Shown here: positions 22,578-63,104 of the stretch, piece after piece | Numbering within the stretch: position 1 is the stretch's first letter | Layout: each line of letters starts with the position of its first letter | Virus record (IMG/VR): IMGVR_UViG_3300032007_000003 | Span: 248,029-312,028 of that record | DNA: 64,000 bases | Reading direction: 5' to 3' (one strand) | Source: a virus | Taxonomy: Duplodnaviria; Heunggongvirae; Uroviricota; Caudoviricetes | The notes under the pieces: model-generated | The model's input: the letters and a program-made list of their open reading frames with translations, nothing else | Database searches by the model: none | Told to the model about the DNA's origin: nothing | Translations under genes and position numbers: made by a program

Positions 22578-23138
22578 ATGGCAGTAGGCGTAATTATCGC
22601 AAGACTTCAGCCAATTCATAAGGGACACCTTGAGTTGGTTAGACAAGCTCTTAATGAGAATGACGAGGTTCTTATCCTTGTTGGTTCAGCAGATAAACTG
22701 AATAAGCGTAATCCAATTCCTATCGCAATGCGTTTGGATTTGGCAAACAAGGCTATTACTGAGGAGTTTGGTGAGGACGCTGGCAAAGTTAAAGTAATGC
22801 CACTTAATGACCTTACAGATGAATCAGATAATTCTCATGATTGGGGTTTTTATCTTTACAGTCATATAGTTGGAATCACTAAGTCACCTGAATTCACTAT
22901 TTATTATTCAGATGGATTTGAGATTATCATGCAGTGGTTTCCTCCATTCATTACGAGAGACTTCGTTTCTTTCAAGTTGAATGCTAGAGGCGCAATCCAC
23001 AACAACTTGTCTGCCACAAAGGTAAGACAGATGATTCTCAAAGGTGATGAAGAGGCTCTTGCAGAAGCCGTACCAACTTGTGTCGCTGAGAATGCGATGA
23101 TATTGAAACATTTCATTGAAGCATTTCAAGATGTATGA
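22578..23138 (+). CDS. nicotinamide-nucleotide adenylyltransferase (NadM/NMNAT-like cytidylyltransferase fold)
   Basis: 'VGVIIARLQPIHKGHLELV' is the (H/T)xGH nucleotidyltransferase motif. The protein is 186 aa. Confidence 0.6.
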   Translation: MAVGVIIARLQPIHKGHLELVRQALNENDEVLILVGSADKLNKRNPIPIAMRLDLANKAITEEFGEDAGKVKVMPLNDLTDESDNSHDWGFYLYSHIVGITKSPEFTIYYSDGFEIIMQWFPPFITRDFVSFKLNARGAIHNNLSATKVRQMILKGDEEALAEAVPTCVAENAMILKHFIEAFQDV

Positions 23139-23490
23139 ACTATGAATATGCAGAGCCATACTTGGAAATAGATTTCAGAGATGGCAATAAGACACGAATC
23201 AAAAGGAGTACAATTACTGATATTTACTCATACAAAGAAAATGGTGAGAATAAGGTAAAAGTAAACTTTAATAGAGGAAACAGTTCAACTTGGTATAAAT
23301 TCGCTGGAACACTAGAAGAATTTGAAGAAAACAGTAAGATTGTATATTTATAATAGCTAGTTCCGTAGTACGATATATAAATTGGCAAGCGTATATGCGT
23401 TGCTCCTACAACGAACTCATAGAATATTAGGAGGTTCAGAGAAACTTGTGTGGTGAAGAATCGGAAATCCACAGACTAGCTTTTTTTAAT

Positions 23491-23565
23491 GTTGGTGTAG
23501 CTCAGTTGGTTTAGAGCACTACGCTGATACCGTAGGGGTCAGGGGTTCAAGTCCCTTCACCAACA
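23491..23565 (+). tRNA. tRNA-Ile(GAT)
   Basis: Acceptor GTTGGTG/CACCAAC (perfect). D-arm GCTCAGTTGGTTTAGAGC. Anticodon stem CTACG/CGTAG with loop CTGATAC. T-arm AGGGGTTCAAGTCCCTT. Confidence 0.75.
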
Positions 23566-23984
23566 CAAACATAATGGGCTTGAAACGGTATAGATTGGCT
23601 GTAGTTTGGTAAGAGACAAGCAGTGGGCATACACTTTCAAATAGCAAAAAAATTAAACGCAGAGAACGTAGATTCTCCTGCTTACGAGTTCGCTATTGCA
23701 GCGTAAACGTGAGCCGAGAGGCTAGGCTCTTAGGAACAGAACATCCTAGCAAATTTTTTTTTGATTAGAAGAAAGGTTCCTGGTTCGAGACCTTGGGAGC
23801 ATTGCTTTAGTTCAAAACGCTTAGGTGTGTTGTAGCTGTTGACAGCTTGGTAGAACATTCTGATAATCAAATGGTGGAATCGGTGACTCTAGTCATCCCC
23901 TAGTGTAATGGCGATACACTTTAATAAAACGTTCTGAGGAAGAAAACCTCTTACCAAAAATTGAAAAGTTTGTATAATCTCTTA

Positions 23985-24027
23985 TGGGACGCAGAACAAG
24001 ACGTGGGTTCAACTCCCACCAGGTCCA
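23985..24027 (+). ncRNA. tRNA-like minihelix
   Basis: GGGAC-GCAGAACAAGA-CGTGGGTTCAACTCCCAC-CAGGTCC. Confidence 0.25.
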
Positions 24028-24045
24028 CTAACAATTAGTTACGTT

Positions 24046-24519: not shown

Positions 24520-24532
24520 AAAAGTTCTTTGA

Positions 24533-26164: not shown

Positions 26165-26297
26165 TGTTTATATAGGGATATAGCTCAGTGGTAGAGTAAT
26201 TTTGTTGCGATTTAAGCTATACACAATACTAACTTCGGAACGTATTGATGCTTTAACTGATAATGAAACGGTCATTGGTTCGAATCCAGTTGTCCCT
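26165..26297 (+). tRNA. interrupted tRNA-Ile(GAT)-like (about 53-nt insertion between the D-arm and anticodon stem)
   Basis: 5' AGGGATA-TA-GCTCAGTGGTAGAGT; 3' TTTAA-CTGATAA-TGAAA-CGGTC-ATTGGTTCGAATCCAGT-TGTCCCT. The acceptor pairs across 133 nt. Confidence 0.4.
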
Positions 26298-26459
26298 GCG
26301 TACCGTGATTATGATGCTTCCACGTATGATAAGCATCTTACTTATTATAGTAGGTTAACATGCTATAGTAGATTGGAGAAGTTTTGGCTACTAATTGTGG
26401 CTAGTAAAATGAAAGTTTTCATCCAATCGTTTTTTATACGGCTTAATATTTAATTATAT

Positions 26460-28380: not shown

Positions 28381-28456
28381 TGGGCATATGGCAGAGTGGT
28401 CGATTGCAACGGCTTCTAGGACCGTAAAAGGCGTGGGTTCGAATCCTACTATGCTC
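28381..28456 (+). tRNA. candidate amber-suppressor tRNA (anticodon CTA)
   Basis: Acceptor GGGCATA/TATGCTC. D-arm GGCAGAGTGGTCGATTGC. The anticodon stem ACGGC/ACCGT (C-A mismatch at 31-39) with loop TTCTAGG gives CTA. An alternative is a 4-bp stem with the 9-nt loop CTTCTAGGA. T-arm GTGGGTTCGAATCCTAC. Confidence 0.4.
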
Positions 28457-28840
28457 ACTACGGCTTGGCGTACCCATATTGGGTGCTGAAATAGGTTAGA
28501 CAAGCACAAGCCACGTAAGAAATGGCAGACATGCAGTAATGCGGTGCGAGGATTAGTCCCTTGCCCTAGTTCCTTGATGGTTAAGAGGATACCTTTATGG
28601 TTGGTATAGGCAAACCTATTTTATGTTATGGCAAGCGAAAATAAAAAGAAAAAAGCAAAGAATTCTTATTTAGCCAATGCTAATAAGACTACTGATAAAT
28701 TGAAGAGAATTAACTTTTACAATAAGATAAATAGAGCAGAAAATAAGTGTAAAGTTAAGGATTGTTAAAGTTGAATTAATCATTTGGTTGGTTCAACTTT
28801 TTTTCGTATCTTTACATCAGAAATTTAAAAACAAGGAAAT

Positions 28841-29857: not shown

Positions 29858-30349
29858 ATGGAAATAGAAGAATTGGCAAAGAGAGTAGCGTTTGCTCTTA
29901 TGGATAAGAACTATAAGATTGCAACTGCTGAAGAGTGTACTGCTGGACTTGTTGGCGCTGCTATTGCAAGTCAAGACTATGCTCAGAGGTGGTATAAGGG
30001 TACTATTGTTACATATGATGAAGCTAGTGCTTGTAAAGTTTTAGAAGTTCAAGACTACACCATTAAAAGGAATGACTTTGTTAGCACTCAAGTGGTGAGT
30101 CAAATGGCATTAACAACATTATATAGGTTTGATGTAAATATTGCATTGGCAATTAATGGGTATGTTGATGGATATGGAAGTACCAATGTTCCAGCTGGGG
30201 ATGTACAAATCTGTGTAGCAAAATTAGTTGGAAAATCAGTGTCTTTCAAAAATAAGAAGCTGTTAGTTAGAGGAAAGGATAGAGGGAAGAATATTGAAGA
30301 AGCAATTAAGGAGGCTCTTATCCTTATAATGGAATCAATTGTAGATTAA
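29858..30349 (+). CDS. CinA C-terminal domain protein (PncC-like NMN deamidase)
   Basis: 'IATAEECTAGLVGAAIAS ... GTIVTYDEASACKVL ... VVSQMA' matches the CinA_C pattern (AESCTGG...G.V.YS...VS..A). Confidence 0.55.
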   Translation: MEIEELAKRVAFALMDKNYKIATAEECTAGLVGAAIASQDYAQRWYKGTIVTYDEASACKVLEVQDYTIKRNDFVSTQVVSQMALTTLYRFDVNIALAINGYVDGYGSTNVPAGDVQICVAKLVGKSVSFKNKKLLVRGKDRGKNIEEAIKEALILIMESIVD

Positions 30350-30350
30350 T

Positions 30351-30734
30351 ATGGAAGGTTGCGCATTTTGTGATATAGAGAAAAGAATAGATGAATCGAG
30401 AATAATATATCAAGATTCAACTTGGATTGCGATATTAGATGGGTATCCAGTTTCAGAGGGGCATACATTATTAATACCAAAGAGACATTGTGAAACATAT
30501 TTTGATTTAAATTATCTTGAACTTGAATCTCTTGGCGTAACAATTGGTATTGTTAAAAGACTATTGGATACCAAATACCATCCAAATGGATATAATGTGG
30601 GAGTTAACTGTGGTGAGGCTGCTGGTCAAACCATCATGCATTGTCATGTACATATCATACCACGTTATAATGGTGATTGCGAAAATCCTAGAGGTGGTGT
30701 CAGAGGTGTTATACCAAATAAGATGTCATATTAG
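30351..30734 (+). CDS. HIT-family nucleotide hydrolase
   Basis: The histidine triad 'HCHVHIIPR' and an upstream 'HTLLIPKRH'. Confidence 0.65.
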   Translation: MEGCAFCDIEKRIDESRIIYQDSTWIAILDGYPVSEGHTLLIPKRHCETYFDLNYLELESLGVTIGIVKRLLDTKYHPNGYNVGVNCGEAAGQTIMHCHVHIIPRYNGDCENPRGGVRGVIPNKMSY

Positions 30735-31003: not shown

Positions 31004-31078
31004 TGCGGGGTGGCGCAGTTGGTTAGCGCACTAGGGGGCATGCCCTAGAGGTCAATGGTTCGAATCCATTCTCCGCTA
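31004..31078 (+). tRNA. tRNA with CAT in a 6-nt anticodon loop (CTAGGG-GGCATG-CCCTAG)
   Basis: D-arm GCGCAGTTGGTTAGCGC. The anticodon arm has a 6-bp stem and a 6-nt loop. T-arm AATGGTTCGAATCCATT. Acceptor TGCGGGG/CTCCGCT. Confidence 0.4.
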
Positions 31079-31094
31079 CATAAAAGATGAAGAA

Positions 31095-45510: not shown

Positions 45511-45851
45511 AACTGAGCAAAAAAGAAAAGTTCCAAAGAGATTATAGGGATATATGTTACTTCGTTGACCATGTTCGTAATATAGATTTTAGAATTAGTC
45601 TTATAAGAAGTCTTGGATATAAGATAGGTGTTAATATTGTTACATCAAAAGACGATAAGGAAAAGTCAATTACAATTGGAAAACGAAAAGAATATAGAAT
45701 ACAGATTGCTCCAGTGTTGCCACGTTCACAGATAGTGCAATGTGCAATTGTGGAATGACTTGTATTAATAAATGTTAAAGTTTAAGCAATATTTTGGTTT
45801 AATTAAAAAAATACTATATCTTTGCAAAAAATAATCAAACGTATATTAGAA

Positions 45852-47384
45852 ATGAATGACTCTAAAGATTTAAATGAGAAGAAAGAGGGTATCGTTGATA
45901 CTACTCCAAAAGTGGACAATAACTCTAGTGAGGACAATAACATCAAATCTGGTGTGATTGTCGCATTGATTCTTAACCAAGAAGTCACTGTCAAATTTGA
46001 TGGTGATAAGGAATGTGGTACATTGCCTTATGACAAATTCGAAAACGCTCCTCTGGTTGGTGACATTGTAAAGGTTCGCCTTGAGGAAAAAAATGGCGAA
46101 ATGGTAATCACTGAGATTGTGGCGCATGAAAAGCCCCATGAAGAGGCAGAGTCTGAAATCTCTAATGAAGAGGATGATGTGGAAGAAGTTGAAGTAGAGA
46201 CTGACCCCATCGATGATGAAATGGATTTGGCTTATTTGGATAAGAACTTTGTCCTTGAAACCATGTCTGTTCCTAGCGATAGCCATAACGAATTCCGTTT
46301 GGTGGTTTATGTCATTCAGTTTGCAAGACGCAATGGCATTAAGTATGAATTTGATGATTACGGAAACGTATATCTTACAAAGGGTGAACTCGCAGAGGGT
46401 GAGTATTATCCTTGTGTAACCTCTCACCTTGATAGTGTTCAACACAAACAGCAGCCTTATATCTATGCTGGTGTAAACCTCGACCTTAAGTGTGAACGCA
46501 CTAAGGATAATGAGCATAAGGTATATGTTGATACCAAGGGACAAGATAAGATTGGTATTGGTGCTGATGATAAGGGTGGTGTATGTATCTGTCTTTCAAT
46601 GTTTGAGCACCTTGAGAAACTTAAGGCTTGTTTCTTCCTCTGTGAAGAGATTGGTTGCTGTGGTTCTAAGGAACTCAACAAGGAATGGTTCAATGACGTT
46701 GGTTACTGCATTGGTTATGACTCTCCAGACTTGATTCGTGCCGCATGGTCATGTGCAGGTGTTAAACTCTTCTCATATGAGTTCTATGAGAAGTGGATGA
46801 AACCAGTATGTGACGAGTGGGGTCTCAAGGATTGTTTCTACTCAGAGCCAATCACTGATGTAATGGAGATTCGTAAGCAGACTGGAGTTATGTGTATGAA
46901 CTTTGGTAATGGTGGTTATAACGCTCACTGCGAAAGTGAATACATTATTCTAGAGCACATGGACCACGCTTGTGGCATGGGTCTTGCCCTCATAGACCAT
47001 ATTGGTTGCACACGTCATTACTTAAAGCACACCTCTACTACTTGGAGTGCATCTAAGGGTACATATAGAAAGGAGAATGGTTTGCTAATCCGTACTGATG
47101 TGGATGATACCAAGCAGTTAGAGAGCCTTGGTGATTGCAAACGTAGAGGTAGTAGCACCTACTATGGTGGCAGTTACAATACATCTAAGACTACTGCAAC
47201 TAAGGATGAACAGCTTGGCTTTGAGATTGTTAAGTATATCGTCAATCGTTATGATGGTCACATCTTGGCGATTAAGGACGAGGTTCTTGAAACAATCAAG
47301 GGAATCTGTGAGAAGTCTGGTGTTGATTTCTCATTATTCGAGACAGAGGTAAGTGAAAAGTTCAGTAATGATATTAAATTTTAA
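45852..47384 (+). CDS. M20/M28/M42-family zinc metallopeptidase-like protein with acidic N-terminal extension
   Basis: Metal ligand pattern 'SHLDSV', 'GADDKGG' and 'CEEIGCCGS' (EE), with a C-terminal His. The N-terminal 130 aa are D/E-rich. The start was set at the first ATG after the promoter at 45792-45825. Confidence 0.45.
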   Translation: MNDSKDLNEKKEGIVDTTPKVDNNSSEDNNIKSGVIVALILNQEVTVKFDGDKECGTLPYDKFENAPLVGDIVKVRLEEKNGEMVITEIVAHEKPHEEAESEISNEEDDVEEVEVETDPIDDEMDLAYLDKNFVLETMSVPSDSHNEFRLVVYVIQFARRNGIKYEFDDYGNVYLTKGELAEGEYYPCVTSHLDSVQHKQQPYIYAGVNLDLKCERTKDNEHKVYVDTKGQDKIGIGADDKGGVCICLSMFEHLEKLKACFFLCEEIGCCGSKELNKEWFNDVGYCIGYDSPDLIRAAWSCAGVKLFSYEFYEKWMKPVCDEWGLKDCFYSEPITDVMEIRKQTGVMCMNFGNGGYNAHCESEYIILEHMDHACGMGLALIDHIGCTRHYLKHTSTTWSASKGTYRKENGLLIRTDVDDTKQLESLGDCKRRGSSTYYGGSYNTSKTTATKDEQLGFEIVKYIVNRYDGHILAIKDEVLETIKGICEKSGVDFSLFETEVSEKFSNDIKF

Positions 47385-47393
47385 TCTAATATT

Positions 47394-49925
47394 ATGATAG
47401 GTACAAGCATTAGAAGCGTCAGACACTTATTCAGAGTGTCTGATGCCTCTTTGAAAACAATTCTAGTTAAATTCAAAGATAACGCATGGGATATTTGTAA
47501 GGTAGTAAAATTCCCTAAAGATAGTTCATTTGGAGAAACGATGTTTATCTTCAATAACTATTATCGTCAAAGTCATTGGAACTTTGATACAATTCTTTTG
47601 TCTAATGACTTTAGAAATAATTTCAAAACAGAAGATGTAACTAATTATGCTTGTAGAGTGATGTCTATCAATAGTAATGAACTTTCATCTTTTGGCGGTT
47701 ATTTCCAAGAAATTACCTTACTTCCAGATTCTTTCAATAAGGATTATGACAAATTCTTGAAAGACAACAATAAGATGGTAAGGAACTTGGTTGATAAGTT
47801 CGGTTTATCAACAAACGACATAAGACTAAAGAGATTATATATCTATTCTGATGGTTCTAAGAATTTCTTTCAGTGGGCAGTTACATCTTGTTATCAGAAT
47901 GGCACATCTATCTCCGTTCTAAAGAATATTTTCATTTGGAATGAGTCTTATAAACAGCTTGCAAAGAATCTTTCAAAGGGCACAATCACAGCATATACTT
48001 CGAGAGAATCTATTTATAAACTTCTCAGTGAGTTAAGCGAATTAAGAAAAGAAAAGAGAATTAACGACTCTATTAATTCGTTTAATACAGCCCAAAAGAA
48101 ACTATTCAAAAGCAACGAATTGTCTGAAAACGACAAGCAAGCTCTCTGGCGTCTTTATCGTCTTTCAGAAGCAAAAAGATTGAATTTCGTTAAAAAGGTA
48201 TCTTCAATTACCGATTTCAATGAACTATTAAGACAGCTTCGTTTCGTGACTAGTGTACATTTCTCATGGAGCAAGGAATCGTTTATGGATTTTCTTGAGA
48301 ATGTAGATGGCATTAAGTACGAAAAGATTTGTGAAAATGAAAAGGTTGTTTTAGTTAAGGTTCTTGATTATGAAACCATTAAACAGCTTGGTAAAACTAC
48401 CAACTGGTGTATTTCAAAGAACAAGACCTATTGGAATAATTACATTGAGGGATATCATGGTGCTACAACACAATATATGATTTTTGATTTCTCTAAATTG
48501 GAGGATGATAAATTGTCTATTGTTGGTTTCACAACAACACGTAATAAGGGTATTACTTCAGCACATAATTTTGTGAATGAAAACCTTATGGGCGGTGATG
48601 AAGGTGAACAAGTTTTCCTTAACTCATTCATATCTAGATTCAAGGATATTAAAAATATTTATTCGATACTTGCTGATGATGGTATTGATATTACCCTTGT
48701 GGTACAGTATGATATGCCACCTTATAAGTGGGATGAGAACAGTCTTATGGATTACTTATATGAGTGTGTAAATCCAGAAAATGTAGACATTATCAAGAAG
48801 AAAGATGGAAAAATCGTTCTTTCTATAATGGATGAAAACATTCGTTATTTCCTTGGTGATACCTATTATGACAATATCTCTTCTGAATATTGGAGTTATC
48901 AGCACATCCTATTTATTGATTTCAATAAGAGCCTATACGATATTAATAAGCTACAGTTTGCAATTATTGAAGAAACTGGTGGTGACGAAGACTATTGTGT
49001 CGGTTTATATAATGAAAGGTCACTTAATTCTAATCAAAACTTCGATACGAAACTTATTGAGTTTGGTTTGCCTTATAACACAATAAGGAGAACAAATGAC
49101 CCATATGTGAGGTTAAGAAACGGTTTGTACTCATATAACACTCCTATGATTAAAGATAGTATCAAAGAGTGTGGTAGTACCGTATTGAGGAACATGATTA
49201 AGAGTGACATAGGAACTGATACATTCTATGATATGGTTCTGAGGACTGTAAGACAACACATGTCATTTGACTATTTACATTTGATTTACGATAATGGTCT
49301 CAAACTTACAGATATATTCTCTGCCTCATATGTGGGAGATATTATTAAGCAGTTTGCCCATGATATGAGAAACATGAGTAGAGCAACTACAACATTCACC
49401 AAACTTGAAGGTATTAATGAAGATAACATTAAAAACTTCTATGATGGTAACTATGGAAGGGATGATACCAAGTATATTGGTTTCTTCGAGGCAATTAGAA
49501 TGATTGTTAAGAACGAAGAGGGACTGTCAAAGAAAGACTACCAAGCTATGTTCAGAAGACTGTTTAACTTCCTAGGAAATGATGGCAAAACTGCTCAAGT
49601 ATATGACCAACTGTTTGATATGGTTAAGGATAAACTAGATTATTCATTGTCAGATGATACAAATTATTCTCTTGCTAAGTTTGCAATTTACTTTGGTAAC
49701 GATGAGACTAAGAAATTTGTTGAGAATAAATCCAAGGAATATAGCGGTTTTAGAAAATGTTATGAAGCCATTTCTAAGGAATATGAAAAATACCTTACTT
49801 TTATTGGTAAACAGAACCAAAAGAATAATAATGCTGGGGTATATACAGTAAGAATTGATGACAACCATGTCAACAATGTTGATTTTGAATATGCCATTGC
49901 CCCAAATGATGAACACGTCTTTTAA
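47394..49925 (+). CDS. large hypothetical protein (843 aa), paralog of 50214-52277
   Basis: Shared block 'TNWCISKNKTYWNNY...YMIFDFSK...GFTTTRNKG...MGG' versus 'TKWCIAREESYFSQY...YFLFDFSR...GFTMENGRG...MGG'. Confidence 0.5.
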   Translation: MIGTSIRSVRHLFRVSDASLKTILVKFKDNAWDICKVVKFPKDSSFGETMFIFNNYYRQSHWNFDTILLSNDFRNNFKTEDVTNYACRVMSINSNELSSFGGYFQEITLLPDSFNKDYDKFLKDNNKMVRNLVDKFGLSTNDIRLKRLYIYSDGSKNFFQWAVTSCYQNGTSISVLKNIFIWNESYKQLAKNLSKGTITAYTSRESIYKLLSELSELRKEKRINDSINSFNTAQKKLFKSNELSENDKQALWRLYRLSEAKRLNFVKKVSSITDFNELLRQLRFVTSVHFSWSKESFMDFLENVDGIKYEKICENEKVVLVKVLDYETIKQLGKTTNWCISKNKTYWNNYIEGYHGATTQYMIFDFSKLEDDKLSIVGFTTTRNKGITSAHNFVNENLMGGDEGEQVFLNSFISRFKDIKNIYSILADDGIDITLVVQYDMPPYKWDENSLMDYLYECVNPENVDIIKKKDGKIVLSIMDENIRYFLGDTYYDNISSEYWSYQHILFIDFNKSLYDINKLQFAIIEETGGDEDYCVGLYNERSLNSNQNFDTKLIEFGLPYNTIRRTNDPYVRLRNGLYSYNTPMIKDSIKECGSTVLRNMIKSDIGTDTFYDMVLRTVRQHMSFDYLHLIYDNGLKLTDIFSASYVGDIIKQFAHDMRNMSRATTTFTKLEGINEDNIKNFYDGNYGRDDTKYIGFFEAIRMIVKNEEGLSKKDYQAMFRRLFNFLGNDGKTAQVYDQLFDMVKDKLDYSLSDDTNYSLAKFAIYFGNDETKKFVENKSKEYSGFRKCYEAISKEYEKYLTFIGKQNQKNNNAGVYTVRIDDNHVNNVDFEYAIAPNDEHVF

Positions 49926-50213
49926 TTATGCTAAAGATAATATTACTTTTTATAGCAATAGGTCTTACTGTTTTCTCAGTAAACTATAAATTCAGTAAAG
50001 CAGTAAGGCTTATTGCTTATAACGAAGAAGAAACACAAGCTGGTGCCTATGCAGACATCTTTCTAATGCTTGGTATTACAATTTTATGGACATTATATTT
50101 TTCGTTATTTTAAGAATTGTTAACATGAAAAATTTGTTATTCAATTTTTTTTTGTATAACTTTGCATCGAAAAACATAATTTGAATTTAAAACATACTTA
50201 ATAGAATAAAAAA

Positions 50214-52277
50214 ATGACTTACAACAAGAAACAAATGCAGCCTTTGATTGATAAGTATGCTATCAATCCTGAAACCAACAAGCTGTTTACTGATGTGTGC
50301 GAAATGTTTGACGGTCAGCCAAACTATCAGATTTGGGCAGTGAAGATGGTTTTCTCCAAATCTTTATCTATTGAACAGCTTGAGACAATTCACGAATGGG
50401 TTGGAAAGAACCAGACATTAGTGAAATCACTTGAGAAGCAGAACATCGTATCTTATTCATCAAAGAATGCTATTTCTCAGTTATTTAAGGAAATGGAAGG
50501 TCTTGATAATCTTTCAATCATCAAGAATACCATTAATCACTTTAATACTGACCAGCGTAAGATGCTTACTAGTAGTTTGCTCCCAAAAGAGTATACTGCT
50601 TTGGAAGGGTATAATAATGGAAACGTTAAAAAGTGGGCTGACATTTTCAGAAAGTTCAACCGTCTTCCTCTTGACCGTAAGAATAAGTTCTATAGCAACT
50701 GTTCTAAGTTGAGAGACCTCAACGATTTACAGTCTGCCATTAAGAGTTGTCTTGAGACCACTTACGACTGGAATAAGGAAGATTTATTGGCATACGTGGC
50801 AAACGTTACAACTGATTGTGAGGTTATTCTTGATAACGGTAACTTCGTAATCGTACATGTACCTTCATTTAAATCAAGTAAACTTCTTTGTGGTAACGGA
50901 CGTACAAAGTGGTGTATCGCACGTGAGGAAAGTTATTTCTCTCAGTATGTAACTGGTCAGAACAACCGTGACCAATACTTCTTGTTCGATTTCAGCCGTA
51001 AGGAAAGTGATGCATTCGCACACATTGGTTTCACTATGGAGAATGGACGTGGTTTCTATTGCGCTCAGACTTGTAACAACAACAGTATGATGGGTGGCTA
51101 TACTCAGAATGGCGAGACTATGAACATAAATCAAGCACTTGAAAAAGCTGGATGTAAGATGTCTCTCTTCTTGCGTCTTAACGCTCTCACGAATTATAAG
51201 TGGGAACTTGAGTCTATTTTGAAGCTTGTTAAGAATAAGCCAAACGACTTTGCTATAGCATATGAGAAAGATGGACGTTTAATTATTAATGTCCTCAATT
51301 CACAAGCAATAAAGACCCTTATCTCTCATTCACTTATTAACTTGGGCAACTTCATGGTTGACAATAACAATAAGGTGTATGTGTTCATCGATACCAATGT
51401 TAAGTATAACGATGAGAGAGCACTCATTGCAATGCACTATCAGAAAGACCAATATGGTACGCTTTCATTGAAGAGAATGAATGACCCATTCAACACTGAT
51501 ATTACCAAGTTGGGTTATCTCTCAAAGGTAGGTATTACCACTGACAACTATCTCAACCGTGAGGCTATTGACCCACAAGTATTGCTTCATAAGCTTATCG
51601 ATGAAAACGATGAGATTGGCGCAATCAAGTTGCTTGAGAAAGAGGGTAAGGACTTCAATGTTAACTATGAATTCAACCAGAGAGTTCCTATTATCTCTGC
51701 CGTAAATAACAAGATGTACACCTTGTTTGAGAAGATTGTAAGTCATCCTAAGTTTGACTCTTCAATTGAGGATGGTTTCGGTGAGACACTTCTTGAATCA
51801 CTTATCTACCTCTATGGTAGTGACGAGATTTCAGCTTCTAAGGAAGAAGAGAAGTCTCTCAAGAGAATGATTATTGCAATCTTGAAGTCTGATACATATG
51901 ACTTCAATGCAAAAGACCTTAACTCTGACACTGCAATCAACATTGCATGTGAGTATCCTAAGATGCTTTGGATTGTTGAGGCTCTTGCATCAAAGAAGAA
52001 CGTTGACATCAATATTGTGAATGATTTCGAGTGTGCTGCACTTGGTGATTGTATTCGTAACAAGAACCTTGAGGCATTGAAGATAATCGGTAAGAGACCT
52101 GATGTAAAGGTGAGAGAAGAGGATAAGAAACTCGCTAAGACCTATGGTATCAACTTGAGTGATTACATTAAGCCAGATGAGAAAATCTTTGGCAGCTTCA
52201 AGTTTGAAGAGGTTGCGGATGAGGCTGAAACCAAATCTACATCAGAAATGGAAATGGCTATGGCTGCTGCATTCTAA
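50214..52277 (+). CDS. large hypothetical protein (687 aa) with C-terminal ankyrin-like repeats
   Basis: Paralogous N-terminal domain; see 47394. The C-terminal repeats '...TLLESLIYLYG...', '...DTAINIACEYP...' and '...ALGDCIRNKNLEALKIIG' are ankyrin-like. Confidence 0.5.
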   Translation: MTYNKKQMQPLIDKYAINPETNKLFTDVCEMFDGQPNYQIWAVKMVFSKSLSIEQLETIHEWVGKNQTLVKSLEKQNIVSYSSKNAISQLFKEMEGLDNLSIIKNTINHFNTDQRKMLTSSLLPKEYTALEGYNNGNVKKWADIFRKFNRLPLDRKNKFYSNCSKLRDLNDLQSAIKSCLETTYDWNKEDLLAYVANVTTDCEVILDNGNFVIVHVPSFKSSKLLCGNGRTKWCIAREESYFSQYVTGQNNRDQYFLFDFSRKESDAFAHIGFTMENGRGFYCAQTCNNNSMMGGYTQNGETMNINQALEKAGCKMSLFLRLNALTNYKWELESILKLVKNKPNDFAIAYEKDGRLIINVLNSQAIKTLISHSLINLGNFMVDNNNKVYVFIDTNVKYNDERALIAMHYQKDQYGTLSLKRMNDPFNTDITKLGYLSKVGITTDNYLNREAIDPQVLLHKLIDENDEIGAIKLLEKEGKDFNVNYEFNQRVPIISAVNNKMYTLFEKIVSHPKFDSSIEDGFGETLLESLIYLYGSDEISASKEEEKSLKRMIIAILKSDTYDFNAKDLNSDTAINIACEYPKMLWIVEALASKKNVDINIVNDFECAALGDCIRNKNLEALKIIGKRPDVKVREEDKKLAKTYGINLSDYIKPDEKIFGSFKFEEVADEAETKSTSEMEMAMAAAF

Positions 52278-52421
52278 CCAATTCCAATGCATAAATGAAA
52301 AAAGTGATATGAACGACAAACATATCACTTTTTTTATACCCAAAAGTTTGGAAATTAACAAAAATTTATATATCTTTGCATATATGATATATTTTATGTT
52401 AAACTTTAAACCTAATAAATT

Positions 52422-53903
52422 ATGAATGTTTATAATTTTAAGAAAATTGAGAAATGTTATGTATTCGGTAATATAGATAGAAATATGGATAGATTTATCA
52501 AGAATCTAACATCTAACATTTCTAAGTTTAAGAAAGAAGAACATCCAAAGGAAATTGAAAGACAAGAGAGATTAAAGAAGCGTGAGGAAGAAATGCATAA
52601 TATTGGCATTGGTGGTATTGGGCATTTACATAATCCGTTTGATGGTGGTCCTGGTCGCCCTATGCGCAGAGCCGATAGAGTTGGAGACGATATGCGTATT
52701 GCACAAGCACCGACATTTGCTTCGACTTGGGATGATGGAAGAACCTTCTTGAAGAAAGGTAATAATAAGATAGACTCTACCTATAATGATAGCGTAATTA
52801 TTGTTAGTGGTAACTGTGGTATCGGTAATAAGAGTAAGAAATATTACGATGAGACATTTGGAAAACTAGATAAAATTCTTGGCGATAATAATTGTTTCAT
52901 CTTATTCGTAAGAGGTAATAATGACAATCCTTCTATCTTCAATAATAGAGAAATTGACTTTGAACATATAAAGGCAATTCCAGATTATTCAGTGGTTGCT
53001 CTTAAGACATTTAATTGCTTATGCATTGGAGGTAGTGTTTCAATGGATAAGGAATGGAAACTAGCTCAAGAGGAACTTTACGGAAAAAAGTTATATTGGG
53101 AAGATGAAGCACCTCAGTATGATGAAGATAAACTCAACGAGATTCTTGAGGCATATAACATCAATTGCGTTATTACAAGCACATGTCCAAGCTTTGCATA
53201 TCCTGGAACCAACGCCTTTAAAAAAAGCAAATGGTTCTATCGTGATAAGAAGATTATTAATGAGTTTTCAAATGAAAGGAAGATAATGGACAAAATCTAT
53301 GAGAAAATAATGGATTCAGATTCAAAACCGTATATGTGGGTTTATGGTAGATTTAAGATGTCCAATACCAACAAACTTAATGATATGGTATTCATTTCAT
53401 TATCTGCCTACAACATGATACAAGTTAATTCTCAACTTGAAGCATTCTTTGGATTGGACACATCAAAGAAAGTAGATATCAATGCATATACATTTGATAA
53501 CATTATCACAGATGGAATAAATAGGGTATCATATGATGAGCATTACGACGATGCGATGGAAATGGGAGAACCTGAAATGGATGAGGAAGAATTCGAAGAT
53601 TTTGATGATGAACCAAAAGAAGAGGAACATGAGGGAATAGAAGAAGAGGCAGCTACACCAATTCAAGGTTTAAATACTAGAAGAGAAACATTAGATAGAT
53701 TTGATAGAATGATACAAGAATTAACAGCAGTGGATAACGCCACGTTAAGGGGTTATGCTGATTATGCTAGATTGTATGATGCAGGTGTTTATGCAACACA
53801 AAATGAACCAATGGCTGTAAATTATGGAGAACTAAGAGCTATAACACTAGAAGACATAAATAGAGCTGCTACGCTTGTTACAAACAGAACTACCAATGGC
53901 TAA
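52422..53903 (+). CDS. hypothetical protein (weak metallophosphoesterase-like GNxD motifs), acidic C-terminus
   Basis: 'VRGNNDNP' and 'VIIVSGNCGIG'. The assignment is tentative. Confidence 0.35.
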   Translation: MNVYNFKKIEKCYVFGNIDRNMDRFIKNLTSNISKFKKEEHPKEIERQERLKKREEEMHNIGIGGIGHLHNPFDGGPGRPMRRADRVGDDMRIAQAPTFASTWDDGRTFLKKGNNKIDSTYNDSVIIVSGNCGIGNKSKKYYDETFGKLDKILGDNNCFILFVRGNNDNPSIFNNREIDFEHIKAIPDYSVVALKTFNCLCIGGSVSMDKEWKLAQEELYGKKLYWEDEAPQYDEDKLNEILEAYNINCVITSTCPSFAYPGTNAFKKSKWFYRDKKIINEFSNERKIMDKIYEKIMDSDSKPYMWVYGRFKMSNTNKLNDMVFISLSAYNMIQVNSQLEAFFGLDTSKKVDINAYTFDNIITDGINRVSYDEHYDDAMEMGEPEMDEEEFEDFDDEPKEEEHEGIEEEAATPIQGLNTRRETLDRFDRMIQELTAVDNATLRGYADYARLYDAGVYATQNEPMAVNYGELRAITLEDINRAATLVTNRTTNG

Positions 53904-56302: not shown

Positions 56303-57697
56303 ATGGAATTATTCAAAGAAGATAAACATAAAAAGCTTTTAAAGAAGTTACAAGATTGCATTAAGGGCACTGCATTTGAAAATAACGTCTATCTTGTAGG
56401 TGGTTGTGTGAGAGACGCTTTGCTAAATGAACCCATTAAGGATTTTGATATTGTGGTATCAATAAAAAATGGTGGCATTATGCTTGCTAACCTATTGGCT
56501 GCAAAGGAAAAGTGCTATAAATTGGGTAGCAATCCAGTGGTATATCCCAAATACGGTACTGCAAAGGTTACTCTGTATAATGATGAAGACCTTAAGGACT
56601 TGGACATTGAGTTTGTTCAGACTCGTAAGGAGCAATATCATGAGGATAGTAGAAATCCAGAACAAGTATTTGGTACAGTTGAAGAGGATGCAAAACGCAG
56701 AGATTTAACCATCAATTCATTGTATTATAATATAAGTGATGAAAAGATATATGATTTTAACTTAGGTATTGATGACTTGGTTAATCAAGTTATTAAAACA
56801 CCGACTGACCCAGATATCACATTCAATGATGACCCATTACGTATATTGAGGGTTATCAGATTCTCTTGTCGTTATGGATGGGGTATTGAAAAGAATACTT
56901 GGTTAGGTATGGTTAAGAATGCTCATCGTATTAAAATTATCTCACAAGAGAGAATCACTGATGAAATTTCAAAGATTATAACTAGTCCAAACCCTTCAGT
57001 TGGTATAAGGAAAATGTTGTTCTGTGGTCTTCTGAATAAGGTGATGCCAGACATATATGACTTAACCAATGCATATGAATCAAGGAATCCAATGCTAACG
57101 TCATTTGACCATACCATGATGGTTCTTGATAAGGTACAGCCTTATATTGAGACTAGATTGGCTGCGTTATTCCATGATGTTGGTAGAATCGCAAGTGAAG
57201 CCAATAGAGGAATCTCACAAGATTTGTTTAGTGCTGATGTGGCTGTTTGTGACTTGAAACTCATGAAGTTCCCAAATGCAATAGCAGATTCTGTTGAGAA
57301 TTCAATTAAGTATCATAGATTCTTTAGAAACTATGCTGATGGTACTGTTCCACCAGATAAGAAGATAAGAAAGTTCATCAACTTATGTGGTGACAACATT
57401 GGGAACGTTGTTGACTTGATGAATGCCAACAACTTGTGTCAAACTTATGACAAGAAAAAGAGACAAGCATTGGACATTCTGAATAGGATTGAAGAACTTG
57501 ATGAGCTTGAAGAGGCTAAGAATGTTAAACTACCCATCGATGGAAAAGATATCATGAAGGAGTTTAATCTTAAGTCTGGACCTCATATTGGTAAACTTAT
57601 GGATTGTTTGAAGGAAGCTTACTTTGATAATCCTAAAATTACTAAAGAAGAGTGCTTTAAGTTGATAGAGGAAAAGATAAAGGTCTTGGCGGTATGA
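56303..57697 (+). CDS. cca: CCA-adding tRNA nucleotidyltransferase with HD domain
   Basis: 'VYLVGGCVRDALLNEPIKDFDIVV' is the class-II nucleotidyltransferase head. An 'LFHDVGR' HD motif is present. Confidence 0.75.
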   Translation: MELFKEDKHKKLLKKLQDCIKGTAFENNVYLVGGCVRDALLNEPIKDFDIVVSIKNGGIMLANLLAAKEKCYKLGSNPVVYPKYGTAKVTLYNDEDLKDLDIEFVQTRKEQYHEDSRNPEQVFGTVEEDAKRRDLTINSLYYNISDEKIYDFNLGIDDLVNQVIKTPTDPDITFNDDPLRILRVIRFSCRYGWGIEKNTWLGMVKNAHRIKIISQERITDEISKIITSPNPSVGIRKMLFCGLLNKVMPDIYDLTNAYESRNPMLTSFDHTMMVLDKVQPYIETRLAALFHDVGRIASEANRGISQDLFSADVAVCDLKLMKFPNAIADSVENSIKYHRFFRNYADGTVPPDKKIRKFINLCGDNIGNVVDLMNANNLCQTYDKKKRQALDILNRIEELDELEEAKNVKLPIDGKDIMKEFNLKSGPHIGKLMDCLKEAYFDNPKITKEECFKLIEEKIKVLAV

Positions 57698-58093: not shown

Positions 58094-58669
58094 ATGGGAA
58101 GAAAAATTTTAATTATCGTTGATGGTCAATACAGCTTTATTGAGGGTGGCTCTTTAGCAGTAGAGGGGGGCAGAAAAGCATTAGATAATCTTGTAGAGTT
58201 CATAAAGAACCATTATAAAGAATATGATGGTATATTCTTAACTGCCGATTGGCATCCAATTACCCACTGTTCTTTCAAAGATAACGGTGGTATCTGGCCT
58301 CCTCACTGTGTACAGTTCTCACAAGGTGCAGCGATATATCAACCAATTCTTGATGTATTAGATGAATTAAGGATTGATTATGATGTTCTCACCAAGGGTT
58401 GTGATGAAGACCATGAAGAGTATTCAATCTTCAAGAATGTTACTTCTGAGGCATACCTTAAGGCAATGAATAAACACAATGAGATTGGGGTTGTTGACAT
58501 TGCTGGAATTGCTGGTGATTATTGTGTCCTTGATACAATAAAGGATGGACTCATGGAATTTCCAAATACTGAGTTCCATGTTATCAATGAGTGTGTTGCA
58601 TCCATTGATGGTGGAGCAACTTTAAGTAAATTCGTTGATGAAAACGAGAGAGTATTATGGCACGAATAG
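58094..58669 (+). CDS. pncA: nicotinamidase / isochorismatase-family hydrolase (PncA-like)
   Basis: 'ILIIVDGQYSF', 'TADWHPITHCSF' and 'WPPHCVQFSQGAAI' match PncA signature blocks. Confidence 0.7.
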   Translation: MGRKILIIVDGQYSFIEGGSLAVEGGRKALDNLVEFIKNHYKEYDGIFLTADWHPITHCSFKDNGGIWPPHCVQFSQGAAIYQPILDVLDELRIDYDVLTKGCDEDHEEYSIFKNVTSEAYLKAMNKHNEIGVVDIAGIAGDYCVLDTIKDGLMEFPNTEFHVINECVASIDGGATLSKFVDENERVLWHE

Positions 58670-58916: not shown

Positions 58917-59392
58917 TGGAGAAATTAACATTAGATGTATTTAAGCATTTTAGGTTCTTCTTGAAAAAGAACAAGATATATGACCTATTTATGCGGAATT
59001 TCAGAAGCCAACCATATGAGAAGATTCATAATGTAGATGCATTCTTACCTAATTACATAAACATAATGAGAGAGTATTCTACAACACGTATGGGTAAAGA
59101 ATATCTCAGTGTATATGGAGCGATGTATCTAACGTTTAGGTCTTTTTGTTGGGCGAATAGAGCAGCATATAAGACACCAAATTCATGGAGCAAGTATTGG
59201 GCTACTATTTGTTTAAAATGGGCACTATATTGCATTAGGCATAATATTGAGATATGCACAGACGAAGACCTTGGCAGACTTATAGAATATTGGGATTCAT
59301 GCAAGTGGATTGACATAAGCAAATTATCATTTCAAGATAGAATAGTTATACAACAATTAAAGTGTAAACACAATAATGGAGACATATACTAA
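58916..59392 (+). CDS. hypothetical protein
   Basis: 158-aa ORF. Confidence 0.4.
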   Translation: MEKLTLDVFKHFRFFLKKNKIYDLFMRNFRSQPYEKIHNVDAFLPNYINIMREYSTTRMGKEYLSVYGAMYLTFRSFCWANRAAYKTPNSWSKYWATICLKWALYCIRHNIEICTDEDLGRLIEYWDSCKWIDISKLSFQDRIVIQQLKCKHNNGDIY

Positions 59393-60323
59393 AATAGATA
59401 CAATGCTAAAAAGATATATCTTTGATGGCAAGGAGTGTCCGAATAAGGATTGGTTGAAGTTCAAGAATAAGATTATCCTTGGCGAGTTCTCATTTAATGA
59501 GGCTGAGTATTTGTTCAATTGTCTTTGGGAAGCCACAAGTAAAATAGACGGTACAAATTCCAAGATTGCTTTCTTTCCTTCAGATGGACACATCGAAGTA
59601 GGTGGCAAGACCGACAAAGCTAGTTCACAGCATGGACAGTTTGAAATGCTCCAAGAGATTGGTGAGCGTATCAAGCCACAACTCTGCGCTATGTTCCCCA
59701 AGGAGTCAGCACGTTTTGTTCCAGTTAAGGGAAATGACAATAAGGTACAGTATTATGACGTACATGCTGATTTTAACGAGTATGACGAAAAGACTATGAT
59801 TGCTAAGTTGCAAGCCAAGTTCGATAAGAAGGATACTGTTATATCAGAAGGCTTATATGGTGTGGAACTTGAGGAAGTTCCTATCTACATCTACGGTGAG
59901 TATTTCGGTACTGGTATTCAGAAGTGTGGTTCTCGTTACATTCAGAATGGTAACGGCTTCCGTGTATTCGACATCAAGCAGCAAGGTTGGTGGTTGCCAA
60001 AGGAAAATCGTGATGCAATGTGCAAAGGTCTTGGTCTTGAGCAAGTACCATTCTTGGGCGTTATGACCTTGCGTGACATTGAGGATATGGTTCGTAGTGG
60101 TTTCACCACAAAGTTTGAGGGGGCTGCTGACCCAACCATGATTGAAGAGGGTATTGTAGCACGTCCTATCATTCCTCTTTGTAGTGGTAATGGTAATCGT
60201 ATTATCGTTAAGGTAAAGTATTGCGATTACATTGAGTATGACACTGTTCGCAAACAGTTCTCTGATGAAGAGTTTGCTGAGTTCGATAAGTGGTATCATG
60301 AGAATATTGAAAATAAGAAATAG
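59376..60323 (+). CDS. ATP-dependent RNA ligase (Rnl2-like nucleotidyltransferase)
   Basis: Motif I 'SKIDGTN' (KxDG without the Arg typical of DNA ligases). Motif IV-like 'EGIVARP'. Motif V 'VKVKY'. Confidence 0.5.
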   Translation: METYTKIDTMLKRYIFDGKECPNKDWLKFKNKIILGEFSFNEAEYLFNCLWEATSKIDGTNSKIAFFPSDGHIEVGGKTDKASSQHGQFEMLQEIGERIKPQLCAMFPKESARFVPVKGNDNKVQYYDVHADFNEYDEKTMIAKLQAKFDKKDTVISEGLYGVELEEVPIYIYGEYFGTGIQKCGSRYIQNGNGFRVFDIKQQGWWLPKENRDAMCKGLGLEQVPFLGVMTLRDIEDMVRSGFTTKFEGAADPTMIEEGIVARPIIPLCSGNGNRIIVKVKYCDYIEYDTVRKQFSDEEFAEFDKWYHENIENKK

Positions 60324-60595: not shown

Positions 60596-61033
60596 ATGAT
60601 ATATGTCGTTTGTAAATTAGGCAATGGGGAAACATTACACACAAATTCCAAATATGGCATTGGAGATTATGTGGAGATAGTTGATGGTGGTCATCAATAT
60701 AGTGGTTATACTGCTGCCTATCAATATTTTTGGGGCGGTGTTGAACGTTATTATATCAATTACAATTTTGATAATGGAGAACCACATAAGGAAGTTCCTA
60801 AATATTGGAAGATTATCAATATGGCACTTGACCCTTCAGGAAGAACCATCTTATACCACATAAGAAGTGTTGATGGGAAAAATAGTGTGGTCGATGAAGG
60901 CGCTATTAAGTTATCTAATTTTCATAGTAGAAACAGAATACCGATTGGTGACGTTAAGATTAATCAACTGCCTTTCAATGGTAATGTTATGCCACATAAA
61001 TGGACAGATAAACTATATAAGGTTCTAACATGA
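60596..61033 (+). CDS. hypothetical protein
   Basis: 145-aa ORF. Confidence 0.4.
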   Translation: MIYVVCKLGNGETLHTNSKYGIGDYVEIVDGGHQYSGYTAAYQYFWGGVERYYINYNFDNGEPHKEVPKYWKIINMALDPSGRTILYHIRSVDGKNSVVDEGAIKLSNFHSRNRIPIGDVKINQLPFNGNVMPHKWTDKLYKVLT

Positions 61034-61455
61034 AACTCATAATTGAAAATTTTGGAACAGTTGAAGTACCTATCAAGATAGGCTATATCGTCACAATTAA
61101 AAAAGGTAGATATGGTTCAGCATTCTATTGGGATTACGTTCAGACATTACCTAAACTGTTAAAGGTTTGTCCATATCAATATGGCGAAGGAATGTACTCA
61201 TTCTATGTTGATGAGCATGGTAATAGAAAAGCGCATGTTCCAAAGGAATGGAAAATTAAACATATTTTTTTCAATGGTGGTAGTATTCATCATCTTTCTC
61301 TTATTGTGGTGTTGGTAAGTAGGTTTAAGGACACATTATCCGTATCCTATATGATGAATCACTCAAACGGTGTATGGGAAGAATATAATTCACCTTTCGA
61401 AGTAATTAACAGAGATAGGAAAGGATTGGAAGAAATTAAAGTGGAAAGGGTTTAA
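61030..61455 (+). CDS. hypothetical protein
   Basis: 141-aa ORF. Possible distant paralog of 61472-61855, with similar W/Y-rich blocks. Confidence 0.4.
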   Translation: MKLIIENFGTVEVPIKIGYIVTIKKGRYGSAFYWDYVQTLPKLLKVCPYQYGEGMYSFYVDEHGNRKAHVPKEWKIKHIFFNGGSIHHLSLIVVLVSRFKDTLSVSYMMNHSNGVWEEYNSPFEVINRDRKGLEEIKVERV

Positions 61456-61471
61456 AATAATAAAAAAAAAC

Positions 61472-61855
61472 ATGCTTGCTAATGTTTTTACATTTCATTG
61501 TATAAAAGACTTTGGTATTGTCTGGAATTACCAATTTCGTGTTGGTGATATTGTAACTGTTAAAAACTGGGGAAATAGATACACATATTACCCATCAGCA
61601 CACAATTATTTTAAAAGAAAACTTGGTATTCCTTATTATAATTCTGATGAATATTACAGTTGGAAACCAAATGACCTCTTCAAAATTAGAGCGATTGCTA
61701 GGCATCATAGGATGGAAAATAGGCTTCTTGCACTTATTGAAGATAGAAATAAAAGAGGAGTAATAATCAACATGGATGGTTTGAGTTTAGCCAAACAATA
61801 CCCATTAAGAAAGGACGAGAAATTAAATAAAAACATTGAAATAATAAAATATTAA
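61472..61855 (+). CDS. hypothetical protein
   Basis: 127-aa ORF. Confidence 0.4.
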   Translation: MLANVFTFHCIKDFGIVWNYQFRVGDIVTVKNWGNRYTYYPSAHNYFKRKLGIPYYNSDEYYSWKPNDLFKIRAIARHHRMENRLLALIEDRNKRGVIINMDGLSLAKQYPLRKDEKLNKNIEIIKY

Positions 61856-61859
61856 AAAA

Positions 61860-63104
61860 ATGGGAAAAATTAAGCAAATTGTTACGCATTTTACTGACAA
61901 TGACCTCTACACTTTTACGTGCCAGTATTACATTTTACACACGTATCCACGTGCAGAGGTGAGGTATGCATTCTTTGACCGTAATCACACTCGTTATCCG
62001 AAAGGATTTGGCGAGTTGCTTCAAGAGCAGATTAACGGCATGAAGGATGTTATTATCACAGAGGAAGAGATTGCCTTTATGAAAAGAAAAATTTACTTCC
62101 TTCCAGATTGGTATTACAATTTCCTTCGTGGATTCAGATTCAATCCCTCTGAGGTGCATATTTCACAAGACCAAAGTGGCTACTTATCAATCGTTATTGA
62201 GGGTAAATGGTATTCCACTATTATGTGGGAAATGCCAATTCTTTCTACAATATCTGAATTGATGCATGTCATCAATGGTGATATTGAGAAAGTGGATTGG
62301 GAAGCAGAATGGAACAGAGCATACGATAAGTGTTTTAAATGCCTTGAAAATGGTATTAGGGTTTCAGACATGGGCACTAGGAGAAGGTTTTGTTTCTATA
62401 ATCAACAAGTGGTTCTTGAGGCTTTTAAGCAAGCAAGACATGACATTGATTTGAAATCAGTTGCAAACGTTAGGACTGGAGATTTCATAGGTACATCAAA
62501 TGTTTGGTTTGCCAAGGGATTTGACCTTACACCTATTGGAACAATGTCCCATCAGTTATGTTCATTTGAAGAGTGTGTAAGTGGTGTGTTCGAGTGTAAC
62601 CATCAGTTAATGAAAAAGTGGTCAGACGTGTATTCTGGAGACCTTGGTATTTTCCTTCCAGATTGTTTTGGAAGTAAGGTATTCCTTTCCAATTTCTCTA
62701 AGGACATGGCTAAGATGTTCGATGGTATCCGAATTGACAGTGGTGATGAAAGGGAGGAAACCGAAAAGATGATTGAGAAATATCGTTCTCTTGGTATTGA
62801 CCCATCTACAAAGTCAATTGTTTATTCAAATGCCCTTACCATCGATAAAGCCATAGAACTTCATGAGTGGCTTGACGGACGTATGAAAGATTCATATGGT
62901 ATTGGTACGCACCTCATGGCTGATGTGACTAACACAGAAACCAAAGAAAAGTTCCCATACTCAAATATTGTTATCAAGCTTGTTGGTATGAGAATAACAG
63001 AGTCTCGTGAATGGCATGATTGTATTAAGCTGTCAAACGACAAGGGTAAAACATTGGGTGATAAGACTAAGTGTGAATATCTAGTGAAACAAATAGGGGA
63101 ATAA
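61860..63104 (+). CDS. pncB: nicotinate phosphoribosyltransferase
   Basis: N-terminal 'FTDNDLYTFTCQYYIL' corresponds to the NAPRTase 'TDxYKxTM' block. 414 aa. Confidence 0.7.
   Translation: MGKIKQIVTHFTDNDLYTFTCQYYILHTYPRAEVRYAFFDRNHTRYPKGFGELLQEQINGMKDVIITEEEIAFMKRKIYFLPDWYYNFLRGFRFNPSEVHISQDQSGYLSIVIEGKWYSTIMWEMPILSTISELMHVINGDIEKVDWEAEWNRAYDKCFKCLENGIRVSDMGTRRRFCFYNQQVVLEAFKQARHDIDLKSVANVRTGDFIGTSNVWFAKGFDLTPIGTMSHQLCSFEECVSGVFECNHQLMKKWSDVYSGDLGIFLPDCFGSKVFLSNFSKDMAKMFDGIRIDSGDEREETEKMIEKYRSLGIDPSTKSIVYSNALTIDKAIELHEWLDGRMKDSYGIGTHLMADVTNTETKEKFPYSNIVIKLVGMRITESREWHDCIKLSNDKGKTLGDKTKCEYLVKQIGE

Follow-up and report, generated by a model that had tools for sequence, protein, structure and literature searches.

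The DNA analysed here, a 64,000-nucleotide stretch (the window) of the tailed-phage record IMGVR_UViG_3300032007_000003 of IMG/VR (positions 248,029 to 312,028), carries genes for a nicotinamidase (PncA), a nicotinate phosphoribosyltransferase (PncB), an adenylyltransferase for nicotinamide mononucleotide (NMN) or nicotinic acid mononucleotide (NaMN), called NMNAT in the following, and a Nudix hydrolase, as well as a gene for a protein of the CinA/PncC fold. The original prediction, made from the letters alone, had read these five open reading frames (ORFs) as a dispersed module for rebuilding nicotinamide adenine dinucleotide (NAD+). All five were found on the + strand at exactly the coordinates it gave, and hidden Markov model searches left each of them in its predicted family, the deamidase label of the CinA-like protein being the part that did not hold. 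The source contig is k141_847008 of ENA ERZ27256887 (412,231 bp), a copy of which is held at JGI as 3300028886 Ga0256407_10000007 (412,184 bp); a window position w corresponds to position 215,443 - w of k141_847008 on the reverse strand. Gene content was searched in the window and its 10 kb flanks, i.e. in 84 kb of the 412 kb genome. Labels such as L001, L100 or L137 denote the metagenome, IMG/VR or flank loci used for comparison.

At 35-37% G+C the window is rich in A and T, its GC skew is positive throughout, nearly all of its long ORFs share one strand, and its 42 tRNA genes span positions 1091-39306. Megablast searches with two window segments returned no close DNA relatives among GenBank phages, and its protein-level relatives are spread over numerous viral contigs 100-413 kb long. 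A 44-mer taken from pncB had no exact match in IMG/VR, so k141_847008 as such is not represented there. The window belongs to a huge phage, the genome of which, at 412 kb, lies above the 200 kb size limit of the NAD-jumbo phages.

Salvage enzymes of the window and an upstream NadE

The ORF at 58094-58669 (+) had been called a nicotinamidase, i.e. an enzyme converting nicotinamide to nicotinate and ammonia, and this assignment was supported by a match to PF00857 (Isochorismatase) with an intact catalytic triad and metal site. Its top NCBIfam match is the nicotinamidase/pyrazinamidase equivalog NF008623, which it matches with 72.5 bits, the cutoff being 174, and its sequence places it as a divergent member of the isochorismatase fold. 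The solved relatives at the top of the search are nicotinamidases only. Aligned to the Pyrococcus enzyme 1ilw, D10, K101 and C144 of PncA make up the Asp-Lys-Cys triad and D52, H54 and H71 the Asp/His/His metal site that characterize nicotinamidases; we take the corresponding residues of 1ilw to be its catalytic triad and metal ligands, and their numbering agrees with the alignment. The gene lies 2-4 kb upstream of the PncB gene, a proximity kept in 15 related metagenome loci.

PncB (61860-63104, +), which would form NaMN from nicotinate and phosphoribosyl pyrophosphate (PRPP), scored 324.4 bits on the nicotinate phosphoribosyltransferase (NAPRTase) equivalog TIGR01514, above the cutoff of 269.55, and was thus correctly named from the start. 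Both PF17767 and PF04095 match, solved NAPRTases align over the full length (2im5 at E=6e-69) and the histidine of the GT..H motif (H231) is retained. The closest cellular sequences, at 56-62% identity, all belong to Bacteroidales (Prevotella, Muribaculaceae and Cryptobacteroides, with many rumen metagenome-assembled genomes), which suggests that pncB was acquired from a Bacteroidales lineage and makes Bacteroidales the probable host of the phage.

For the adenylyltransferase at 22578-23138 (+), archaeal/NadM-type models were by far the best and matched over the whole length with scores below their cutoffs (PRK01153, 60 bits; TIGR01527, 55 bits). The matches in the PDB are restricted to NMNAT, NadM and NadR proteins. 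Both ATP motifs expected of a nucleotide-binding enzyme of this family are present, namely H14-K-G-H17 for (H/T)xGH and S145-A-T-K-V-R150 for SxTxxR, in line with the NMN/NaMN adenylyltransferase originally proposed.

The Nudix hydrolase (41019-41573, +) could likewise be confirmed by PF00293 and an intact Nudix box (G63-x5-E69-x7-R77-E78-x2-E81-E82-x-G84). A profile of this protein and its phage homologs matched 2fml best (E=2e-14), followed by 3gz8/3gz5, and also found the NadM-Nudix protein 2qjt; 3gz5 and 3gz6 were identified as the ADP-ribose-dependent regulator NrtR. Because the profile matches NrtR and NadM-Nudix proteins and a WAFxH motif near the C-terminus of the family aligns with AFDH of NrtR, the protein, with its complete Nudix box, belongs to the ADP-ribose-binding NrtR/NadM-Nudix clade. 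Many NrtR proteins lack the catalytic glutamates. These are retained in the window protein, which is probably an ADP-ribose pyrophosphatase.

Inspection by eye revealed no obvious shared element upstream of the five genes, an Rfam scan yielded tRNAs and tmRNA only and no NAD+ riboswitch, and PHROGs contained no match to the small ORFs that separate PncA from PncB or lie beside NMNAT.

As had been stated at the outset, the window contains no NadE; Pfam calls across the whole window and tblastn with phage NadE proteins agreed on this, and tblastn with phage NadE, NadD and AAA_28 proteins was blank in the window and its right flank. The original prediction had named the remainder of the genome as the place to look, and the source contig does carry a NadE gene, which lies about 9 kb upstream of the first window position. 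This NAD synthase of 322 residues (PF02540) occupies about -10,099 to -9,131 in window coordinates, i.e. about 224,574-225,542 of k141_847008, and its gene runs across the left end of locus L137 (1-746). The C-terminal 248 residues, a part that does not include the N-terminal SGGxDS loop, contain the NadE motifs ISQGNIKARLRM, GD..D.NPIG and PTDGNG; the NadE of a related contig (L136), complete with 301 residues, shares 60% identity with them. NadE matches PF02540 only, as the short form does, and because a glutaminase domain is absent it is classed by its domain content as ammonia-dependent. The one ammonia that PncA would release per nicotinamide would be a stoichiometric fit to such an enzyme.

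Gene order in the lineage and compact clusters in other phages

Loci for comparison were collected by PncB from metagenomes and IMG/VR and then scanned with the window proteins. In the phage-tier relatives, the PncB proteins of which are 67-83% identical to that of the window, a block of CCA-adding enzyme - PncA - RNA ligase - PncB recurs in 15 metagenome loci and in most long IMG/VR loci. The left neighbour of PncA, a protein of the CCA-adding enzyme/poly(A) polymerase family (56303-57697, +; PF01743, PF12627), is kept in the relatives, and the RNA ligase between PncA and PncB (59376-60323, +; PF09414 and PHROG RNA ligase families) is present in most related loci with 58-85% identity. Directly 3' of PncB, 13 metagenome loci carry a gene for a NADAR-domain protein, which in the source phage is located just beyond the window end (about 64,538-65,044; L001 12679-13185). 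NADAR proteins undo the ADP-ribosylation of DNA; among phages, AdfN is known as an anti-DarT NADAR. The dispersed order NadE...NMNAT...Nudix...PncA-Rnl-PncB-NADAR is conserved in the lineage: in IMGVR_UViG_3300028048_000038 (409.5 kb), NadE, NMNAT (99% identity), Nudix (89%), PncA and PncB follow one another and are spaced as in the source phage. The scattered arrangement is a stable trait of the lineage.

Relatives of PncB were found in 13 and relatives of PncA in 8 of 50,697 GenBank phage records, and the source phage has both. Given this rarity, the presence of both genes here and the conservation of the set in relatives, the co-occurrence of the set in the source phage is far beyond chance. 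The same families form compact clusters with NadE in other phages, further examples of which were obtained by scanning with an alignment of phage NadE proteins and by scanning the loci again. In a second subclade (L036, L040, L100) the genes are tightly arranged as PncA - NadE - PncB - Nudix - small ORF - NadD-type adenylyltransferase, and the cluster PncA-NadE-PncB-Nudix-NadD was seen in L100, where it spans 8114-12858, and in L106; IMGVR_UViG_3300028887_000066 is a record with this cluster. The Nudix proteins of this subclade are 36-38% identical to that of the window; Nudix homologs with 36-42% identity lie inside the NAD clusters of L100, L040, L108 and L124. The last of these loci packs PncA-Nudix-PncB-NadE-NadD into 6 kb (6366-12100), L107 and L109 show PncA-PncB...NadE, L108 shows NadE-Nudix-NadD, and the human-gut phages L102 and L132 combine an AAA_28 gene and PncB with a glutamine-dependent NadE.

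Such gene groups also occur in GenBank records. PncA, PncB and NadE stand back to back in MT835470.1 (22914-25907) and within 8 kb in the 735 kb phage LR756501.1 (423205-431429), and in the Sinorhizobium jumbo phage Phosso, which has been isolated, PncB adjoins NadE (PV764938.1, 271756-274333). Li et al. credit the 735 kb phage with nadD alone; relatives of PncA, PncB and NadE were detected there by tblastn. Because the genes travel together in several arrangements across phages, there is strong evidence that PncA, PncB, the adenylyltransferase, NadE and the Nudix family share one function, and the functional linkage that had been proposed for the four window genes is thereby upheld.

The NMNAT family of the window was moreover found beside a gene of the ribosylnicotinamide-kinase family (AAA_28) in distant phages (L236 5334-6573; L231 6001-9482). 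The gut phages in which an AAA_28 gene accompanies a NadM-type NMNAT or PncB suggest a split NadR-like nicotinamide riboside salvage. In L102, the AAA_28 gene near PncB, of the NadR ribosylnicotinamide-kinase family, is located at 8669-9193.

A CinA/PncC-fold protein without the catalytic dyad

The fifth ORF (29858-30349, +) had been taken for a CinA/PncC-like deamidase. Its family and fold were corroborated: PF02464 matches, the score on TIGR00199 is just above the cutoff (74.4 versus 68.9) and the predicted structure (pLDDT 95) superimposes on CinA/PncC structures including AtCinA (2a9s) with TM scores of 0.88-0.93. The deamidase function was not. Compared with the characterized PncC of E. 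coli, E26 stands in the position of the nucleophile S29 and A58 in that of the general base K61, in a register that was the same in MAFFT and in five HMMER alignments with solved CinA proteins among their subjects. The T/S-G-x-A-G-P loop is changed and shorter, and the phosphate-binding residues Tyr53 and Arg142 are retained. Fifty relatives of the protein were collected (P0001-P0050); in 24 aligned members, with identities down to 47%, E25-E26 is invariant and the K61 position has no conserved Lys. An invariant Glu-Glu-Cys-Thr motif and the strongly conserved motifs ASQDYAQRWYKG, VQIC, FKYKK and RGKNIE are the family's own, and as far as searched this dyad-less family is restricted to the present huge-phage clade. 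To judge from the alignments, the loss of the dyad is a property of the whole family and not the decay of one copy.

The surroundings of the gene are also conserved: related huge phages keep the order S24-like ... CinA-like ... HIT ... Band_7 - AAA_25 - Asp protease. This block contains no NAD genes, and none of the phage NAD clusters examined contains or adjoins a CinA-like gene. In the neighbouring HIT-family protein (30351-30734, +; PF01230, PF11969) both the CxxC and the histidine triad (HCHVHII) are intact, its gene follows the CinA-like gene in L010, L011, L014 and L015, and the PHROG families that it matches are of unknown function.

If the protein were nonetheless an NMN deamidase (PncC), it would feed NMN into the deamidated route and extend the set to a five-enzyme module. 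The PF02464 match, the TIGR00199 score slightly over the cutoff, the retained Tyr53 and Arg142 and a modelled fold that is practically that of active NMN deamidases speak for this role, but the nucleophile and the general base are Glu and Ala throughout the family in a consistent register, the T/S-G-x-A-G-P loop differs in sequence and is shorter, and the gene stays away from every phage NAD cluster examined. In AtCinA, the corresponding alanine mutants S31A and K63A, like Y58A and R145A, had no detectable activity (PMC5384747). We regard the PncC role as very improbable: because the Ser/Lys dyad is replaced family-wide and linkage to NAD genes is missing, the protein is probably neither an NMN deamidase nor a step of salvage, and the public label 'PncC family amidohydrolase' on this family is probably wrong. 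That the dyad-less proteins have a new activity, or act as a ligand sponge for an NAD-derived nucleotide and thus as a counter-defence device apart from salvage, is a little less remote and still improbable; the ligand of such a sponge could be an immune signal or an NMN/ADP-ribose-like molecule.

Several further features were recorded in the region and in related phages. The RNA-repair genes comprise RtcB (L137 4222-5580, i.e. window -5655 to -4297), the CCA-adding enzyme and two PF09414 ligases, the second of which lies at L001 20541-21227 (window 72,400-73,086). A tmRNA (23576-24030, +; Rfam RF00023, 56.9 bits) directly follows a tRNA-Ile (23491-23566) near the NMNAT gene. Among the tRNAs are one of amber-suppressor type with anticodon CTA (28382-28458) and two with unusual anticodon loops (2943-3012 and 31004-31079), and two long tRNA-like Rfam calls (17628-17754 and 26174-26298) may contain introns. 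Large ORFs of 520, 843, 687 and 493 residues stand in a row at 45822-53903 and have almost no family matches, apart from weak ones to S1CSD-TOTE-1 (520 residues) and to ankyrin repeats (687 residues). Related huge phages carry TnpB/Cas12f-like (OrfB_IS605) insertions (L010 17851-19008; L102 11687-13330).

A probable deamidated route to NAD+ and its proposed benefit to the phage

From the enzyme families, key residues and genetic linkage observed here we infer substrate preferences, flux and a counter-defence benefit as follows. PncA would convert nicotinamide to nicotinate and ammonia, PncB would use ATP to join nicotinate and PRPP to NaMN, the NadM-type adenylyltransferase would turn NaMN into nicotinic acid adenine dinucleotide (NaAD) and might, given NMN, yield NAD+ in a single step as well, and NadE would amidate NaAD to NAD+ using ammonia. 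The Nudix hydrolase would most likely split ADP-ribose into AMP and ribose-5-phosphate, which would remove an NAD+ breakdown product and feed PRPP synthesis of the host, and the NADAR protein possibly frees ADP-ribose from modified targets. Combined, these genes would increase or replenish the NAD+ of the infected cell and may also supply the phage's own needs. PncB, the adenylyltransferase and NadE constitute a complete Preiss-Handler set if the adenylyltransferase accepts NaMN, which is assumed because archaeal-type enzymes are known for dual specificity. The pathway is complete in the source genome since NadE was found on the same contig. The proposal that the window genes rebuild NAD+ thus stands for PncA, PncB, NMNAT and Nudix as a linked salvage set and is withdrawn for the CinA-like protein.

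On balance we consider it probable that the genes of the phage make up an entire Preiss-Handler route which leads from nicotinamide to NAD+ and restores NAD+, its likeliest benefit being survival of host defences that act as NAD+-cleaving enzymes (NADases); the original prediction had named Thoeris, DSR and SIR2/TIR systems as candidates. Attack by NADases or ADP-ribosyltransferases leaves nicotinamide and ADP-ribose as its two products, which favours counter-defence. Several points weigh against this conclusion. PncA, NMNAT and Nudix all fall short of curated equivalog cutoffs, the activities of these phage proteins are predicted from sequence, and NadE of the source genome was read over 248 of its 322 residues. 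NadM-type enzymes often favour NMN, and the compact clusters of other phages carry a NadD-type enzyme instead of the NadM type. Genes for tRNAs and RNA repair intervene between the NAD genes, which in this lineage are scattered across about 75 kb. Finally, the 84 kb examined, out of a genome of 412 kb, contain no PRPP synthetase.

The same biochemistry might serve another purpose, namely general NAD+ supply for NAD+-consuming enzymes of the phage (NAD-dependent ligase, ADP-ribosyltransferases, dehydrogenases) and for a long infection rather than a specific answer to NADases. Li et al. (PMC11662467) offer this explanation first and report an NAD-dependent DNA ligase in more than half of the NAD-jumbo phages, besides many other NAD-dependent enzymes, and the proximity of PncB to genes of the host lineage is as expected of an auxiliary metabolic gene. 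A general supply role is equally compatible with the data and compatible with counter-defence as well. As the specific purpose it nevertheless appears rather unlikely to us: the route begins at nicotinamide, an ADP-ribose-type Nudix and NADAR accompany it, and NAD-consuming enzymes were not found in the 84 kb examined. It is hardly credible that the genes are unrelated residents of one accessory region, with, for example, the Nudix protein in RNA decapping or house-cleaning and the NMNAT-like protein as a cytidylyltransferase-fold enzyme of tRNA or RNA repair. Their dispersal among 42 tRNA genes, a tmRNA, RtcB, two PF09414 ligases and the CCA-adding enzyme would fit such a view, as would the scores of NMNAT and Nudix under family cutoffs, but Nudix proteins of the same family sit inside compact NAD clusters of other phages, the NMNAT family is paired elsewhere with a ribosylnicotinamide-kinase-family gene and the whole set co-occurs across lineages of differing gene order. 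The genes as chance neighbours were rejected on the strength of these clusters and of the co-occurrence.

Pathways of this kind have been described from genomes before. In the entirely bioinformatic work of Li et al., 2024 (Microbiome, PMC11662467), 174 of 668 gut jumbo phages turned out to carry the genes of a complete salvage or Preiss-Handler pathway, a pncB-nadD-nadE cluster was shown, counter-defence was proposed and the hosts of the 'Kuafu' clade were Bacteroidota only. The source phage resembles these NAD-jumbo phages in its gut or rumen origin, a size above 200 kb, a host signal of Bacteroidota type and a complete route including pncB and nadE, and the proposed roles, NAD+ supply and counter-defence, are shared. 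It differs from their pncB-nadD-nadE example by the NadM-type enzyme, the entry through PncA, the spread over about 75 kb and the accompanying Nudix and NADAR genes. The terms pncC, CinA, NADAR and Nudix are absent from the main text of that paper (PMC11662467). The genomic claim of a new route is therefore pre-empted by Li et al., 2024; what goes beyond their main text is the NadM-type enzyme, the PncA entry, the association with Nudix and NADAR and the dyad-less CinA family.

The experimentally established NAD+ reconstitution pathways (NARPs) pursue the same goal by other means. NARP1 and NARP2 were shown to defeat NADase defences (bioRxiv 2024.02.11.579819), NARP3 consists of PnuC and NadR (PMC13464706), likewise shown experimentally, and none of the three employs PncA, PncB or NadE. 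Closest in its substrates is NARP2 (Nampt + Nmnat; Osterman et al., 2024), which like NadV/NatV of vibriophage KVP40 makes NAD+ from nicotinamide, PRPP and ATP with an enzyme of the NMNAT family; KVP40 also has a Nudix protein, as is the case here. NARP2 is, however, an amidated two-step route via NMN, whereas the present one would be deamidated and have four steps (PncA, PncB, adenylyltransferase, NadE). A gene of the Nmnat family is present, but the 84 kb examined contain no NAMPT-like gene, the sole PF04095 protein there being the PncB-type NAPRTase. With NARP1 (Adps + Namat) and NARP3 the restoration of depleted NAD+ is shared as a goal, and substrates and chemistry differ; neither a PRPS-like Adps or NAMPT-like Namat (by Pfam) nor a PnuC or NadR/AAA_28 gene was detected in the window and its 10 kb flanks. 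The gene families and their order of action are those of the bacterial Preiss-Handler/pyridine nucleotide cycle (PncA, PncB, NadD, NadE, PncC), from which the phage set differs in being virus-borne, in using a NadM-type enzyme for NadD and in a PncC-fold member without the catalytic dyad. The original prediction had presented the set as a variant of NARP1 and NARP2. The route is indeed a different one, but its novelty was overstated, as genomic Preiss-Handler pathways had been described by Li et al., 2024.

What the present locus adds is a pathway made complete by the discovery of NadE and accompanied by Nudix and NADAR, compact operon versions in other phages that are handy for cloning, and a phage family the 'PncC' annotation of which is probably wrong. 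It is a tentative proposal, to which we give somewhat less than an even chance, that the Preiss-Handler genes work together with Nudix and NADAR as a fourth NAD+ reconstitution route against NADase defences; this is likelier than a CinA-like sponge. If it is true, huge phages of Bacteroidales would rebuild NAD+ by their host's own deamidated route, and a fourth route would join NARP1-3, in phages of the dominant gut and rumen bacteria.

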